A stretch of DNA of 64,000 nt. It comes from Escherichia phage BF17. This document shows, piece by piece, positions 12,850-58,624 of the stretch (positions are counted from its first letter, which is position 1; each line of letters opens with the position of its first letter). The stretch lies in the sequence record MW822008.1. One strand, given 5' to 3'. The notes below the pieces were generated by a model. That model did no database searches. It saw only the letters and a list, made by a program, of their open reading frames with translations, and was not told the DNA's origin. The translations under genes and the position numbers were made by a program.

Positions 12850-12875
12850 CACCCTCCGATTCTTTGTGATATAAT
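12846..12875 (+). promoter_or_regulatory. sigma70-like early promoter
   Basis: TTGACA (12846-12851), 18 nt spacer, TGaTATAAT (-10 at 12870-12875). Confidence 0.55.
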
Positions 12876-12908
12876 CTCTTTATATTAATTGTAAAGGGTT
12901 ATATCACA

Positions 12909-13385
12909 ATGTCCAAAGACCTATCATTTAGCAATGCACAAAAAATAGCAAAAGACATTATCAGGGTTTATAAATTCCTTGCGAATGTTACTGAAGATTT
13001 TTTCGTGGGGGAACATAAAGTTATTAAACGAAATGGATACCTTTCCTTTATGGATGGGTTACTCTATAGTTCAGATGAATCAACTTGTAGCATTAGAGTA
13101 CTTGATGAAGTACCAAGTGGTGATTTTATTTCATACCATTTTCCAAGTTCAGATAATTTCAAATACTACAATCATCTTCTTATAAATGAAGCATTTGATA
13201 CGATTGTAATTAACACTGAAGAAGAGTTCTTCCAGTACAGTACTGTGTATCCAGAGAGGATTGTTTTCAGTTCAGTGATTTACACTGCCCTTAAAAATGA
13301 ACTAAATTCCGATAGTGATCATTACTACTTGGACCTGAACAATGTCGATTGTATTATTGAGTACATGGAGAAAAATGGTTTATGA
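12909..13385 (+). CDS. hypothetical protein, FQ-motif paralog family
   Basis: Motif EEEFFQYSTVYPERI. Confidence 0.65.
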   Translation: MSKDLSFSNAQKIAKDIIRVYKFLANVTEDFFVGEHKVIKRNGYLSFMDGLLYSSDESTCSIRVLDEVPSGDFISYHFPSSDNFKYYNHLLINEAFDTIVINTEEEFFQYSTVYPERIVFSSVIYTALKNELNSDSDHYYLDLNNVDCIIEYMEKNGL

Positions 13386-16169: not shown

Positions 16170-16680
16170 AGATGATATTCTAATTAGACTAATTAATAGT
16201 TTAATAAAGTTCTCAAATAATGATGTCGATACATACAAAGTAGGGGATATTGAATACAAATCATTTGGTATGTACGGTGAGGATAAAACATATTATGCGT
16301 CAATGAAATTTCAAGATTTTCACGAGATGTTAATATCGTTATCATATGAAGATGTTGATCCAAGATGGAGTTCCAGTATTTCACTATCGAGAATGGTAAT
16401 TCGTAGTAAGCATCGTTATATTTCGTCAAAGAATACTCCTAACTTGATTAATATTGTGTTGAATGAAAATACAAATCCCCTATCTAAACATGATATCGTA
16501 CCGTTAACCGATGAAGTTCTTTTTCAATTGAGTACCATTTGTGATGAAGATGTGATATCATGTATGAAAATTTATGAGAAGGTTGGGAGTGATATTCCTA
16601 TGAACTATTACCTAACTATAGATGGAACGTACCTTCGAGATGATGTTTTAGCGTACATTGACAGTGTTTTACCAAAATAA
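16162..16680 (+). CDS. hypothetical protein, FQ-motif paralog family
   Basis: Motif DEVLFQLSTICDEDV. Confidence 0.6.
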   Translation: MDKDDILIRLINSLIKFSNNDVDTYKVGDIEYKSFGMYGEDKTYYASMKFQDFHEMLISLSYEDVDPRWSSSISLSRMVIRSKHRYISSKNTPNLINIVLNENTNPLSKHDIVPLTDEVLFQLSTICDEDVISCMKIYEKVGSDIPMNYYLTIDGTYLRDDVLAYIDSVLPK

Positions 16681-25886: not shown

Positions 25887-25925
25887 ATGTGAACATATTA
25901 GATTCTTGTGATATAATGTTCACAT
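25887..25925 (+). promoter_or_regulatory. early promoter -10 embedded in 10-bp inverted repeat
   Basis: atgtgaacat (25887-25896) and atgttcacat (25916-25925) flank TGaTATAAT (-10 at 25912-25917). Confidence 0.45.
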
Positions 25926-27597: not shown

Positions 27598-27625
27598 GAC
27601 AAATGATAAGTTAATGATATAATAT

Positions 27626-27660
27626 AAGGTGACAACATAATATGTTAGTCACCTTTTTTT
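27626..27660 (+). terminator. intrinsic terminator
   Basis: ggtgacaacat / atgttagtcacc stem (one bulge) followed by TTTTTTT; TGATATAAT sits just upstream. Confidence 0.6.
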
Positions 27661-28200
27661 AATCCTGAAAGGTTCCCATAAGGAAATGATTAAAAGCCTA
27701 ATCCACTCGAAAATGTAGAGGGTAGATGAGTAGTCCTTTCAGTACGAACAGCAGATGAAACCCGTTAGATGATGGCATAGTTTGAACCACTCACGGCAAT
27801 GCGGCTGTATAAAGAACTCCAATAGGATAAAGAGAGTTCCTCGATAGACATATAAGGATCGCACCTTACCAATTATCTAAGGGAGATTTCATAAGAAATA
27901 TGCGGTCGGAATTATACAATATAGTTGCGTCCAAATTTTGTGAAATCAAATACAAGTACTGGTCATATGGTATTTGTATTATGTGTCGGGATGTTTAAGA
28001 CCGACGACCGTTGCTACAAGAACCGCGATAGAGAGAAACAGAGCAACCCGCTTTCGTCTCGTAAGAGAATTCGTGATATGAACTATGTGAAGGCCACCAG
28101 CGTCAAACTTTTTTGTTCTTTCCCCTGCGGGGGGGATGAAATATGCTCAAGCAAACCCCGTCAATATTAATTAAAAGAAAATAGTACTTGTAGAATTAGA
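27661..28200. other. ORF-poor, GC-richer region; candidate structured non-coding RNA or decayed insert
   Basis: No ORF of 60 aa or more except one implausible Cys/Arg-rich TTG-start frame; local GC well above flanks; several short stems; no tRNA T-loop or group I P7 found. Confidence 0.25.
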
Positions 28201-38330: not shown

Positions 38331-38619
38331 TTTACTATATATAAAGTCAGTAGAAGCTGAAATTAAAAATTCAGTACAAACTATCGTCGATGAAATGATT
38401 GACAAATACAAGAGCAATCTTATTGGGAAGAAAGTCAGATGTTGGGATTACACATTCAAACACTGGTACGATTCCGAGATTGTGAAAGTTGATGTGAATA
38501 CTGATAGTAATGGTCTAATTAATGGTATTGCGTATATTGGTGTTTTAATACGCAAGGGAACACCACAGGAATGGCTAACTTATCATAATATAGAGCATGT
38601 TAAATTTTTAGAGGATTAA
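38308..38619 (+). CDS. hypothetical small protein, family C
   Basis: Track ORF 38290..38619; ATG 38308; KYKSNLIGKKVRCWDY core. Confidence 0.5.
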   Translation: MINNAQSNLLYIKSVEAEIKNSVQTIVDEMIDKYKSNLIGKKVRCWDYTFKHWYDSEIVKVDVNTDSNGLINGIAYIGVLIRKGTPQEWLTYHNIEHVKFLED

Positions 38620-38622
38620 AGG

Positions 38623-39555
38623 ATGCCAACTATCACACTAACAGTTGGATTGCCTGGGTGTGGTAAAACTACATGGGCAGTGCAAGAGATTAAAAACGCC
38701 AAATCCAAGACTATCAACATCAACCGTGATGATATTCGTGAATCTATGGCTGGGTCACATGATGCTTACAAATTCAACGATGCTAATGAGCAGTACGTAA
38801 CTAATTTACAGTTCAGTGCAGCAAATTCAGCAGCAGAGAATGGTTGGAACATCATCATATCCGATACAAACCTTAAACAACATTTCCGTAATCTCTGGAA
38901 AGTATGGGCTAAAGATAATGGTTATGATTACAAAGAAAAGAACTTCTATGATGATTTTGTACCTAATGAAGACCGTGGTGCAGATGTTCATGAATTCTTT
39001 AAGATTAAAGAGTTCGTAAAACTTTGTAAGAAATATAACCTCCAGCGTGAGCGTTCAGTACAAGATGATATCATTGACACAATGGCAGATACGTACTATT
39101 ATAGTAAGGCATTACACATTGGTTACTATGGTAATTCACGCGAAGCTGCTATCATCGTTGATATCGATGGAACTCTTGCTCATAAATGGGGTCGTAATCC
39201 TTACGATGAAAGTACTGTTCTTCAGGATACACCTGATGAAGAAGTTATTTTGTCTATTATCGCTGAAGCAGTTTTTCATAAACGCAAGATTATCGTCATG
39301 AGTGGGCGTACTGAAGGGTGTCGTGCTGATACCGAACAGTGGCTTAAGAATTGGGGTGTTCCTTACGATGCATTGTTTATGCGAGATATCGATGATAAAC
39401 GTCCTGATGATGTTGTAAAATTCGACCTGTACATGAAAAATGTGGTTGATCATTACGATGTTAAAAAGGTATATGATGACCGCGATCAAGTTGTATTCAT
39501 GTGGCGTAAGCTACTTGGGTTGAAAGTTTTCCAAGTGGCTGAAGGAAATTTCTAA
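38623..39555 (+). CDS. pseT: polynucleotide 5'-kinase / 3'-phosphatase
   Basis: Walker A GLPGCGKTT; NINRDD; phosphatase DxDGT (IVDIDGTLA); aligns along its length with T4 Pnk. Confidence 0.93.
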   Translation: MPTITLTVGLPGCGKTTWAVQEIKNAKSKTININRDDIRESMAGSHDAYKFNDANEQYVTNLQFSAANSAAENGWNIIISDTNLKQHFRNLWKVWAKDNGYDYKEKNFYDDFVPNEDRGADVHEFFKIKEFVKLCKKYNLQRERSVQDDIIDTMADTYYYSKALHIGYYGNSREAAIIVDIDGTLAHKWGRNPYDESTVLQDTPDEEVILSIIAEAVFHKRKIIVMSGRTEGCRADTEQWLKNWGVPYDALFMRDIDDKRPDDVVKFDLYMKNVVDHYDVKKVYDDRDQVVFMWRKLLGLKVFQVAEGNF

Positions 39556-39560
39556 TACAA

Positions 39561-39591
39561 AAGGGATCATATATTGGTCCCTTTTTCTTTT
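39561..39591 (+). terminator. intrinsic terminator
   Basis: aagggatca...tggtccctt hairpin followed by TTTTTCTTTT. Confidence 0.6.
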
Positions 39592-39622
39592 AAGGTACAT
39601 TATAGTGAATGTAACAACACAG

Positions 39623-39781
39623 ATGTTATTACAAAAAGACTACTTAGAAAATATAGAACGATACTATAGATTGTCTTTGTATGAAAATAAGCATAAAAAT
39701 TATAGTTTTGATAAACTACTAAATTCCAGTACTGATGATTATCTATTTTCATCAATGTTTTATGTGAGAGGTTTATTATAA
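39623..39781 (+). CDS. hypothetical small protein (52 aa)
   Basis: Untracked ORF; stop overlaps next ATG; no clear RBS. Confidence 0.25.
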   Translation: MLLQKDYLENIERYYRLSLYENKHKNYSFDKLLNSSTDDYLFSSMFYVRGLL

Positions 39782-41186: not shown

Positions 41187-41226
41187 GACGTATCAGAATT
41201 CGGTGATATAATTTGATTACATCACC
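41184..41226 (+). promoter_or_regulatory. early promoter -10 embedded in inverted repeat
   Basis: TGaTATAAT (-10 at 41207-41212) between ggtgat (41202-41207) and atcacc (41221-41226). Confidence 0.4.
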
Positions 41227-52064: not shown

Positions 52065-52318
52065 CAGTAATAATTATTATTGCTTTTCTAATAACAGTGT
52101 TTTTCATTTTTATGTTATATATAGTTGCTATGGATGAACCTAATACTTCTTTTCGAAATTATGAAGTTCGTTTTTCTGCACAAAATAATAAGTACTATAT
52201 TGTAAACTGTATACACCGTAGTGAGAAAAGGGTAACAAGTAGATTTGGATTTACCATTTATTATAAAGACCGAGTAGAAGCTGATATGATTTGTCAGAAG
52301 CTTAATACTGTAGAATAA
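52061..52318 (+). CDS. small membrane protein
   Basis: 85 aa, N-terminal hydrophobic helix; ATGA overlap with cd. Confidence 0.5.
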   Translation: MTVIIIIAFLITVFFIFMLYIVAMDEPNTSFRNYEVRFSAQNNKYYIVNCIHRSEKRVTSRFGFTIYYKDRVEADMICQKLNTVE

Positions 52319-52347
52319 AAAAAAGGAGCCGTATGGCTCCTTTTTTT
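52317..52347. terminator. bidirectional intrinsic terminator
   Basis: A-run, ggagcc-gtat-ggctcc hairpin, T-run; lies between convergent genes. Confidence 0.65.
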
Positions 52348-56701: not shown

Positions 56702-58141
56702 ATGAAAAAATATACAATTGACACAAACGTACTACTATCTGACCCGAATGCATCTATTGCTTTTGATGGTGCTGCAATCATTCTACCATTTACAGTACTG
56801 GAAGAATTGGATTCAATTAAGAGTCGTAATGTAGATGTTTCACGCGATGCTCGTGTTGCTATTCGTAACATTGAAGCAATTATTGCAGATGCATCACATG
56901 ATGAGATTAGTAGTACTGGTGTTAATATTGCTGATGTTCATACCAATATGAATCCTGATAGCAAATTGTTTGTTATTACAAACGAAGAAGCTGAAGCACT
57001 AATTCGTACTAAAGGTTCAGAAGAGAAAGTTCAAACCCTTCTCAAAAGCACAGTACCTGATGATAAAATCATTCTGGTAGCTTTAGCAACAGAATCAGTA
57101 CTGGTAACTCGTGATATCAACATGCGTATCAAAGCACTAAGTTATGGTGTCGAGGTACAAGATTATCGCCATGATATTGTTATTGGTGATAGTGATTTGA
57201 TTCACATTGGTCAACACCATTTGGAAATTAATTTTTGGGAAGTATATAGCAACTTATCCAATACTAATATTCAATCCGAACAAGTTGGTCGTCGTTTGTA
57301 TCATTACATTTCTAAAAGCTTGATTGAACATTTGCTTCCACAAAATCTATGCATCGGTGATTATCTATATGATGATGCAGACGTATTATTTGTGTACGAA
57401 GGTCAATCAGCAATTGAGGAAGATGATGGAACACTAACACCAGAAGATATTTTGGTATTCCAAGATATTGGACAATCAGTAGCTTTACGTGCTAAAGTAT
57501 GGGATATTAAAGCAAAGAATATCCAACAAGCACTCGCCATCAACAGTATTCTCGATCCTGATGTACATCTAACAGTACTGCTAGGTTCTGCTGGTACTGG
57601 TAAAACACTAATTACGATTGCTACTGCATTAGAATTAGTACTGGAAAAACGTAAATACGACCGAATCATCTTCTCTAAAACTCAAGACTCACAGTTTGAA
57701 GATATTGGTTTCTTGCCAGGTTCAGAAGCAGAAAAAGTGATTCCATTCTGTGGAGCCGCAATTGACGCGTTAGAGTTTCTTCATAAAGATGATGCTAACC
57801 CACAAGGTAGTATTGAAGAGATTATGAAACGTAATGTTATTCAATTTAAAGCACTAAACTTTGTACGTGGACGTTCATTCACCAACACTATTCTAGTAGT
57901 TGATGAATTCCAAAACATTACACCTGCACAAGCCAAAACAATCTTGACACGAGCAGGATTAAACTGTAAAGTAGTAATTATGGGTAACTTGAGTCAGATT
58001 GACAGTAAGTTTATTAGTCCTGTTAACAGTGGTTTGACATATGTAACTGAGAAGTTTAAAGATTGGGCAGGTTGTCGTGTCATCGAACTTGAAGGTGTTG
58101 TTCGCTCACCACTAGCTGAATTTGCTGAAGAAAATATGTAA
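56702..58141 (+). CDS. phoH: PIN-domain PhoH-like ATPase (PhoH2 type)
   Basis: N-terminal PIN-like region (DTNVLL, LEELD); Walker A GSAGTGKT; Walker B VVDEFQN. Confidence 0.88.
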   Translation: MKKYTIDTNVLLSDPNASIAFDGAAIILPFTVLEELDSIKSRNVDVSRDARVAIRNIEAIIADASHDEISSTGVNIADVHTNMNPDSKLFVITNEEAEALIRTKGSEEKVQTLLKSTVPDDKIILVALATESVLVTRDINMRIKALSYGVEVQDYRHDIVIGDSDLIHIGQHHLEINFWEVYSNLSNTNIQSEQVGRRLYHYISKSLIEHLLPQNLCIGDYLYDDADVLFVYEGQSAIEEDDGTLTPEDILVFQDIGQSVALRAKVWDIKAKNIQQALAINSILDPDVHLTVLLGSAGTGKTLITIATALELVLEKRKYDRIIFSKTQDSQFEDIGFLPGSEAEKVIPFCGAAIDALEFLHKDDANPQGSIEEIMKRNVIQFKALNFVRGRSFTNTILVVDEFQNITPAQAKTILTRAGLNCKVVIMGNLSQIDSKFISPVNSGLTYVTEKFKDWAGCRVIELEGVVRSPLAEFAEENM

Positions 58142-58144
58142 TAT

Positions 58145-58178
58145 TGTATGGGACATTATGTCCCATACATGATATAAT
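58145..58178 (+). promoter_or_regulatory. 25-bp perfect palindrome abutting TGaTATAAT -10
   Basis: 11-bp stem tgtatgggaca / tgtcccataca with 3-nt loop (58145-58169), then TGATATAAT (-10 at 58173-58178). Confidence 0.45.
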
Positions 58179-58209
58179 GTTGTTATCATACTACAGAAGG
58201 AGATATAAA

Positions 58210-58398
58210 ATGGCTAAACAACCTAAGAAAAAAGAACCAGTAGCAAAAGTTAAGAAAGAGAAAGTTATTCAATCTAAAGAACAACGTATGTACGAACAAC
58301 GTAAGAGTGAAACCCTATCCGGTCTACAAGCTCTACGCAAACAAGGTGTACTAACTCGTGCACAGTACCGTGAACTAGTAGCTCAGAAAGGTTTTTGA
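58210..58398 (+). CDS. small basic protein
   Basis: Track ORF 58144..58398; ATG 58210 seven nt after AAGGAG; Lys-rich N-terminus. Confidence 0.5.
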   Translation: MAKQPKKKEPVAKVKKEKVIQSKEQRMYEQRKSETLSGLQALRKQGVLTRAQYRELVAQKGF

Positions 58399-58502
58399 TT
58401 CATTTGAAGACATATTGTGGAGTTCTTAATAAATACTTTTATAAGAATAATAATACTTTTTATTAAATTAAAAAGAACTCCATGTGTTATTTCAGTTTTT
58501 CG

Positions 58503-58529
58503 TCCCTGTCTTTTGGCAGGGATTTTTTA
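58503..58529 (+). terminator. intrinsic terminator
   Basis: ccctg...caggg hairpin followed by ATTTTTT. Confidence 0.5.
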
Positions 58530-58624
58530 TATCTATATCTTGACAAAAGGAACAAATCATGAGAACATGTATTAAAGGAAGAATGACTTTCCATTAGGTT
58601 ATTTTAACTTAAAGGAGATTTCAT

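Follow-up and report, generated by a model that had tools for sequence, protein, structure and literature searches.

Among the regulatory elements known from phages, those closest to the locus considered here are the promoter-early stem-loop (PeSL) cassettes of the T4-like phages RB49/phi1, T4/PST, and KVP40/nt-1 (Arbiol et al. 2010, PMC2839356; Comeau et al. 2014, PMC4122927). A PeSL starts with a stop codon set in AT-rich DNA and combines it with a sigma70 -35/-10 pair, a stem-loop, and a Shine-Dalgarno sequence (SD) with its ATG, and five positional subclasses are distinguished by the place of the stem-loop, e.g., over the -35, between the -35 and -10 elements, or over the -10 (PMC2839356; PMC4122927). 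The stem-loop of RB49 PeSL211/210 was found to lower lacZ expression roughly as strongly as rrnB T1 does (PMC2839356), and a role as a recombination hotspot that shuffles cassettes and genes has been proposed for these elements in T4-like phages (PMC2839356; PMC4122927). The compact arrangement of terminator and promoter is already known from T4-like phages and is ordinary rather than new. For RaK2-like jumbo phages, no earlier description of PeSL-type composite junctions was found in the literature searched.

The window analyzed here comprises 64,000 nt of Escherichia phage BF17 (MW822008.1), an Asteriusvirus, i.e., a jumbo coliphage of PBECO4/121Q/G17 type within the RaK2-like group. JP4 and PBECO4 share 99.5% identity with it over the 4 kb that surround the site. 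In the 68-nt gap between phoH and a small gene, a perfect 11-bp stem with a 3-nt loop begins 3 nt past the phoH stop and ends 27 nt before the AAGGAG and 40 nt before the ATG of the small gene, while TGATATAAT lies 31 nt upstream of the AAGGAG-ATG (Table 1). From the comparisons described below, the palindrome is probably a terminator-derived, attenuator-type hairpin at the 3' end of phoH, which overlaps a sigma70-type extended -10 promoter of the small gene.

Table 1. Features of the junction between phoH and the small gene, in window coordinates.
Feature	Position	Strand	Evidence
phoH, PIN-PhoH fusion protein, 479 aa	56702-58141	+	Pfam PhoH E=7e-44, PIN_4 E=7e-20; PhoH-like in related GenBank records
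phoH stop TAA	58139-58141	+	
Stem-loop, left (5') arm TGTATGGGACA	58145-58155	+	Sequence; promoter scans
Putative -35 GGGACA, 3' end of left arm	58150-58155	+	Promoter scans
Stem-loop, loop TTA	58156-58158	+	
Stem-loop, right (3') arm TGTCCCATACA, inside putative promoter spacer	58159-58169	+	
Extended -10 TGATATAAT, adjoining the stem	58170-58178	+	
Predicted transcription start region, ~6-9 nt past the -10	58184-58187	+	Standard sigma70 promoter geometry
Shine-Dalgarno AAGGAG	58197-58202	+	
Small gene, 62 aa, pI 10.4, Lys-rich N-terminus, phrog_24119	58210-58398	+	
Canonical intrinsic terminator GTCCCTGTCTTTTGGCAGGGAT + T-run, closing the small-gene transcription unit	58502-58531	+	Consensus terminator scan (58502-58523)

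The initial annotation had described a perfect 25-bp palindrome with a 3-nt loop that directly abuts TGATATAAT after the phoH stop, upstream of an AAGGAG-led gene for a 62-aa basic protein, and had denied that it was a standard intrinsic terminator. Coordinates, letters, and gene are as described, and the last point is correct as well. The tail that follows the stem, TGATATAATGTT, has no T-run; taken as a hairpin tail, TGATATAAT contains 4 T in 9 positions, which falls short of the GC-rich hairpin with a direct U-tract of a canonical intrinsic terminator. A consensus terminator scan was silent at 58145-58169 but called the hairpin at 58502-58523, which is also annotated in two related records, that of phage G17 (ARNOLD terminator) and that of UE-S1 (terminator). 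A terminator acting on the minus strand was ruled out, since the neighbourhood has no minus-strand genes and a T-run is missing. Just upstream of the terminator at 58502, a further structure is found at 58418-58483, where 10-bp arms (TGGAGTTCTT and AAGAACTCCA) enclose a 45-nt AT-rich loop with a late-promoter-like AATAAATA; it is conserved in A4 and Turkey5.

The layout of a PeSL is matched point by point. The upstream stop codon lies in AT-rich DNA (80% A+T over the 25 nt from 58125 to 58149, which run from the end of phoH across the stop codon into the left arm), and AAGGAG at 58197 and ATG at 58210 follow. A sigma70-like early promoter is matched at the sequence level by GGGACA, a 17-bp spacer, and TATAAT with a TG extension, and the stable stem-loop by the 11-bp stem (-16.5 kcal/mol as RNA), which lies over the -35 and the spacer. 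The likeness is greatest with RB49 PeSL211/210, which, as extracted from RB49 intergenic DNA rather than from the construct tested in the original paper, reads TTGACA GGGGATcacgtATCCCC TATACT and shows the same anatomy, a stem without a T-run set against the -10. The differences include a GGGACA instead of TTGACA as -35 and the phage itself, a RaK2-like jumbo phage only distantly related to T4. By analogy, the element would work like a PeSL in its capacity as a composite of attenuator and promoter. PeSL likeness does not extend to the promoters of the window in general. Stem-loops in promoter cores were significant at only 2-3 of 13 intergenic promoters of the window (Stouffer Z = -1.56), without general enrichment, and the notion that all of its promoters are PeSL-like was dropped on this result.

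The promoter half of the junction can be assessed through its -10. The motif TGATATAAT occurs 12 times in the window against 3.9 expected, a count that none of 100 shuffles reached. Eleven of the 12 copies are on the + strand, which carries 128 of the 130 crude ORF calls, and 6 of these 11 are intergenic (7 of 11 with the annotated start of the small gene), although intergenic DNA makes up 8.8% of the window (P ~1e-4). It is thus a real extended -10 motif, strand-biased and enriched between genes. At the intergenic sites, a GGACA/TTGACA-type element is found 16-18 bp upstream of TATAAT, and GGGACA itself recurs as a -35 at the TGATATAAT sites 33707 and 43478. A generic sigma70 scan of 55-61 kb gave 26 matches where 28 were expected, i.e., no enrichment; loose -35/-10 matching is uninformative, and the promoter argument is therefore built on the extended -10 motif. 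Judged by its letters, 58150-58178 is a typical member of the phage's extended -10 promoter class, in which the 3' end of the left arm would serve as the -35 and the right arm as the spacer. The enrichment of TGATATAAT and the 17-bp spacing of GGGACA thereby lend sequence-level support to the earlier view that the palindrome sits at the -35 of a promoter.

According to the literature, relatives are transcribed by the host RNA polymerase from TTGAC/TATAATA-type promoters and themselves encode an RpoD-like sigma factor. An N4-type hairpin promoter was dropped from consideration, since the transcription of the group is assigned to these two components. Two promoter flavours can be told apart in the window, one with TTGACA/TTTACA and a variable extended -10 (e.g., 449, 16735, 51915, 52819, 60311), the other with a GGACA-type -35 and an invariant TGATATAAT (e.g., 24151, 33707, 43478, 48932, 58170). 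Since an RpoD-like sigma is encoded in the phage group, a different sigma factor might serve each flavour. Promoter 16735 also belongs to an ordinary terminator-promoter junction, with the terminator at 16679 in front of it.

As a structure, the hairpin is stable for its composition (z = -4.55 against 200 shuffles), and it ranks second-longest among the perfect hairpins of the window. The longest, at 52318-52347 (A7GGAGCC gtat GGCTCCT7, 13 bp), looks like a bidirectional terminator. Stems of 11 bp or more that enclose loops of 3-8 nt numbered two, against 0.18 expected per 64 kb, and at least one such stem was present in 17% of the shuffles; by length alone, the stem is only moderately unusual. 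It is the position and the conservation of the palindrome, not its length, that make it non-random. A stable hairpin between two cistrons could also be a processing site, at which RNase III or a phage endoribonuclease would cut and separate the phoH and small-gene messages. RNase III normally needs about two helical turns, for which an 11-bp stem is too short. No Rfam family matched anywhere in the window at the gathering threshold, and the strong promoter predicted directly downstream would make cleavage unnecessary for the expression of the small gene. Such processing is considered highly improbable.

Conservation was counted in an alignment of 9 genomes, with the palindrome scored as two 10-nt arms around a 5-nt centre. 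Variable positions amount to 36% at the 3' end of phoH and to ~68% (21 of 31) at the other intergenic positions downstream of the -10, distributed as 13 of 18 between the -10 and the SD and 8 of 13 between the SD and the ATG. Within the palindrome, 2 of 10 positions vary in the left arm, all 5 in the centre (58155-58159), and none of 10 in the right arm (58160-58169), which is followed by an equally invariant extended -10 (0 of 9). An invariant run of this kind (58160-58178, 19 nt) has a probability of ~5e-10 at the intergenic rate and of 2e-4 at the coding-region rate, and TGATATAAT is unchanged in all cassette-bearing relatives. A promoter spacer makes few base-specific contacts with sigma70. 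Since the right arm sits in the spacer, pairing with the left arm is the best explanation of why it does not vary, and the substitution pattern indicates that both arms are under selection. One alternative holds that the palindrome is a decaying and now functionless remnant of an ancestral phoH terminator and that only the promoter matters, and both the absent T-tract and the fact that A4 and Turkey5 manage without the palindrome would suit it. A right arm that stays invariant among genomes differing at 36% of nearby coding and ~68% of nearby intergenic positions, together with a stem that is perfect or wobble-paired, with two exceptions, in all of the ten other cassette-bearing relatives compared, makes a functionless remnant very unlikely. 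The exceptions among these relatives are two, namely UE-S1, in which T>A at 58145 opens the terminal pair and nothing more, and CMSTMSU, a low-quality record with a 2-nt deletion in the left arm.

Conserved arms around a free centre would also fit a dyad operator, the function first proposed for the palindrome along with that of an RNA processing hairpin. A dimeric phage or host repressor would bind the duplex palindrome, occlude the -35 and the spacer, and shut the promoter of the small gene, possibly with autoregulation by the 62-aa protein. The perfect dyad symmetry across the -35 and spacer speaks for an operator, as does a downstream product that is small and basic, and the perfect inverted repeat over a core promoter is a likeness with the operators of lambda or P22 Cro/cI and of LexA type. 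The variants found among relatives are less easily reconciled with a dimeric protein. Six alleles of the centre occur (ATTAT, ATAAT, AATAT, GTACT, ATATC, and the 4-nt ATTC), so that the spacing of the half-sites is 5 nt or, in one clade, 4 nt. In WPEC5 and TH47, A>G at 58148 in the left arm gives a G.U wobble on the sense strand, by which the symmetry of the DNA is broken and the pairing of the RNA is kept. The wobble evidence for RNA pairing consists of few events; arm changes that keep pairing at two further cassettes of the window (25912 and 41207) are sense-strand wobbles too. A DNA-pattern scan and a protein-anchored scan of IMG/VR returned 121Q only, and a single metagenome scan brought up one contig, which was identical to the window, in both cases without further junction variants.

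In the wider group, a stem-loop is present between the phoH stop and the next gene in every relative examined, with -11 to -17 kcal/mol and eight different stem sequences. In the window clade, the stem GTATGGGAC is directly followed by TGATATAAT. Elsewhere, stem and tail take other forms: GGGGCA with a T-rich tail (7 of 9 T) in Munch, GGGGATAC with T-runs in BF, CBB, GAP32, and Yen9-04, GGGGGAGT with a T-containing tail (5 of 9 T) in EJP2, TTTCGGTACTGA followed by AAATTT in RaK2, and GGAGTGCT with a weak TTCT tail and no promoter in JNE01. The -10 is enclosed by the stem in Turkey5 (GCGTCCAT) and A4 (GTGTTCAT); these two phages have no hairpin at the phoH stop itself but one around the -10, with the -10 in the hairpin loop, as in RB49 PeSL199/198 and 226/225. 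The T-runs are clear in Munch, BF, CBB, GAP32, and Yen9-04, whose equivalent hairpins are canonical intrinsic terminators, whereas EJP2 and RaK2 have T-containing tails only.

Compared with the terminator-promoter junctions of RaK2, Munch, BF, CBB, GAP32, and Yen9-04, the window hairpin has the same position (3-10 nt past the phoH stop) and a similar stability; it differs in lacking a U-tract and in a stem that overlies the -35 and spacer rather than preceding the promoter. The stem of Salmonella phage Munch is homologous to that of the window. In an in-register comparison of TGGGGCA/TGCCCCA with TGGGACA/TGTCCCA of the window, 6 of 7 pairs are common and one is a compensatory A-T/G-C pair, and TGATATAAT follows 11 nt past the stem, after the T-rich tail. 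From these letters, the window looks like the Munch arrangement minus the T-tract. An RNAalifold consensus across genera gave 4 pairs, with the distant terminators left out of structural register by MAFFT. In Munch (~1148-1190 of the compared sequence), the retained TGATATAAT overlaps the annotated ATG of CPT_Munch_148; either the annotated start is wrong or the -10 is a relic.

The two modules are separated in JNE01, where phoH and the small gene have a gene of 426 aa (record positions 38375-39655) between them, inserted exactly at the boundary of hairpin and promoter. Behind phoH, JNE01 keeps a hairpin of unrelated sequence without a promoter; in front of the small gene, it keeps TGATATAAT and the downstream leader, with TAGACA and AT-rich DNA in place of the palindrome and no GC hairpin. 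As the inserted gene parts them in this way, the hairpin appears to be a 3'-end element of phoH and the -10 to belong to the small gene, the two merely overlapping in the window. The C-terminal part of the 426-aa product has a just-sub-threshold match to the CapR homology domain. In A4, Turkey5, and JNE01, the interval from the terminator T-run to ATGACTTTCC (58526-58583 of the window) also contains an additional gene of ~245 aa, in place of which the window has a 55-bp remnant with an orphan TTGACA at 58541.

These relatives also bear on the operator, as JNE01, A4, and Turkey5 drive the same small gene from promoters without the palindrome, and the hairpin remains with phoH where the modules are apart. 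Moreover, the palindrome is single-copy in each ~350-kb genome (the "2 places" reported per record are a self-match on both strands), by which a REP/MITE-type repeat was ruled out as well. Unlike the classical dyad operators, the site tolerates variable spacing and wobble asymmetry, and no cognate DNA-binding protein can be identified nearby. The 62-aa protein has no detectable HTH or RHH-type domain; searches with it gave a sub-threshold SHOCT-like match at the C-terminus, a PHROG without an assigned function, and no relative in the PDB, and autoregulation was dropped for these reasons. An operator is accordingly improbable. The original pair of suggestions is thus retained in part: the conserved pairing and the hairpins linked to phoH argue for an RNA hairpin, one that would derive from an attenuator or terminator instead of being a processing site, and neither processing nor an operator is favoured.

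A further possibility, compatible with the phoH 3'-end hairpin and overlapping promoter, is that the palindrome acts in DNA, as a hairpin or cruciform that forms a recombination hotspot and shuffles regulatory cassettes and neighbouring genes. The intergenic cassette is replaced as a whole in A4 and Turkey5, and genes have been inserted beside it in JNE01, A4, and Turkey5. The changes also cluster in the loop: JP4, overall 99.5% identical to the window, differs from it at 5 positions in 344 nt, 3 of which stand side by side in the loop. In RB49, crossovers of mini-circles were mapped to the stem-loop's loop (PMC2839356). The PeSLs of RB49, however, are a family dispersed through hyperplastic regions and conserved in sequence over ~100 bp, with long conserved flanks and recombinable G(n)/C(n) stems, whereas the palindrome of the window is unique. 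The cassettes of the window are not a repeat family either; for 13 of them (64 kb of ~350 kb), the pairwise identity outside the -10 is 0.30 against a random expectation of 0.28. A local blastn-short search of the window for a donor of the A4 and Turkey5 cassettes gave only chance-level matches. With cassettes at random-level identity and those of A4 and Turkey5 unmatched in the window, the window offers no substrate for homologous exchange. In addition, the gene insertion of A4 and Turkey5 is found past the downstream terminator, with no such cassettes at its flanks. A hotspot of this kind is given little chance, and recombination and mobility, which also belong to the definition of a PeSL, find no clear support here.

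Taken as a phoH 3'-end hairpin that overlaps a promoter, the junction would operate through two modules. The stem-loop, forming in the nascent sense RNA, would mark the 3' end of the phoH message, attenuate or terminate read-through and/or protect the 3' end of the phoH mRNA, and it would descend from the canonical terminator with hairpin and T-run that follows phoH in related jumbo phages. The sigma70-type promoter (GGGACA, 17 bp, TGATATAAT) would then restart transcription for the small basic-protein gene, in a unit predicted to run to the terminator at 58502. With the T-tract absent in the window clade, the -10 abuts the stem, and the left arm would double as the -35 and the right arm as the spacer. 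The anatomy of the junction, the selection on both arms, the homology with terminators, and the separability of the modules, all read from the compared genomes, argue for this arrangement, from which the effect on transcription, the promoter activity, and the start site are inferred. According to the standard E. coli model, intrinsic termination is weak without a U-tract. Since the tail UGAUAUAAU is A/U-rich yet no U-tract, termination at the hairpin should be weak by this model. It is unlikely, if conceivable, that the hairpin is instead an efficient terminator without a U-tract, which uses the -10 as its 3' flank, couples the termination of phoH with re-initiation on the same 35 bp by handing over or recycling the polymerase, and also forms in DNA in vivo, with the loop as a hotspot for multi-nucleotide replacement and cassette exchange.

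Other sites of the window combine hairpins and promoters in different ways. Both of the further inverted repeats that had been cited alongside the palindrome (25887-25925 and 41202-41226) are real. The first consists of 10-bp arms (ATGTGAACAT, 25887-25896, and ATGTTCACAT, 25916-25925) that reach from the -35 to just past the -10; the 5' arm contains the -35 and the loop the -10, and CTTTTTTT, a T7 run, follows the 3' arm up to 25932. By its layout, this cassette (25912) may be read as an interleaved terminator and promoter. UE-S1 and Ecwhy_1 retain its arms, with a G.U wobble on the sense strand; in A4 they are weaker. The second repeat, GGTGATATAAT ttg ATTAcATCACC, forms the stem-loop of cassette 41207 and is less conserved among relatives than the first. 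At 27615-27662, the hairpin AAGGTGACAACATAATATGTTAGTCACCTT with a T7 run comes 5 nt past a TGATATAAT promoter. This promoter-to-terminator unit of ~35-40 nt, with the next ORF ~350 nt off, may specify a tiny RNA or serve as an insulator. At 12867-12908, a long hairpin has a -10 (TGATATAA) in its 5' arm, and its 3' arm (GGTTATATCACA) covers the SD region directly ahead of the ATG at 12909. Such a hairpin would mask the ribosome-binding site in read-through transcripts only and not in those started at its promoter. The T4 lysozyme/soc arrangement has a similar layout.

The significance of the junction depends in part on how its hairpin acts. If the hairpin terminates without a U-tract, as has been reported for the equivalent element of RB49, it would be a useful natural case for studying how a hairpin and an A/U-rich -10 stop the E. 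coli RNA polymerase; otherwise, it is an ordinary junction. Should the coupled terminator and DNA-hairpin hotspot prove true, PeSL-type mobile regulatory cassettes would extend from T4-like to RaK2-like jumbo phages, in a non-repetitive form. For those who annotate or engineer therapeutic jumbo phages of the PBECO4/121Q type, the site would represent a transcription-unit boundary that standard terminator finders overlook because it has no T-run. More generally, the early regions of these genomes may use compact, overlapping stem-loop/promoter junctions in the style of T4-like phages.
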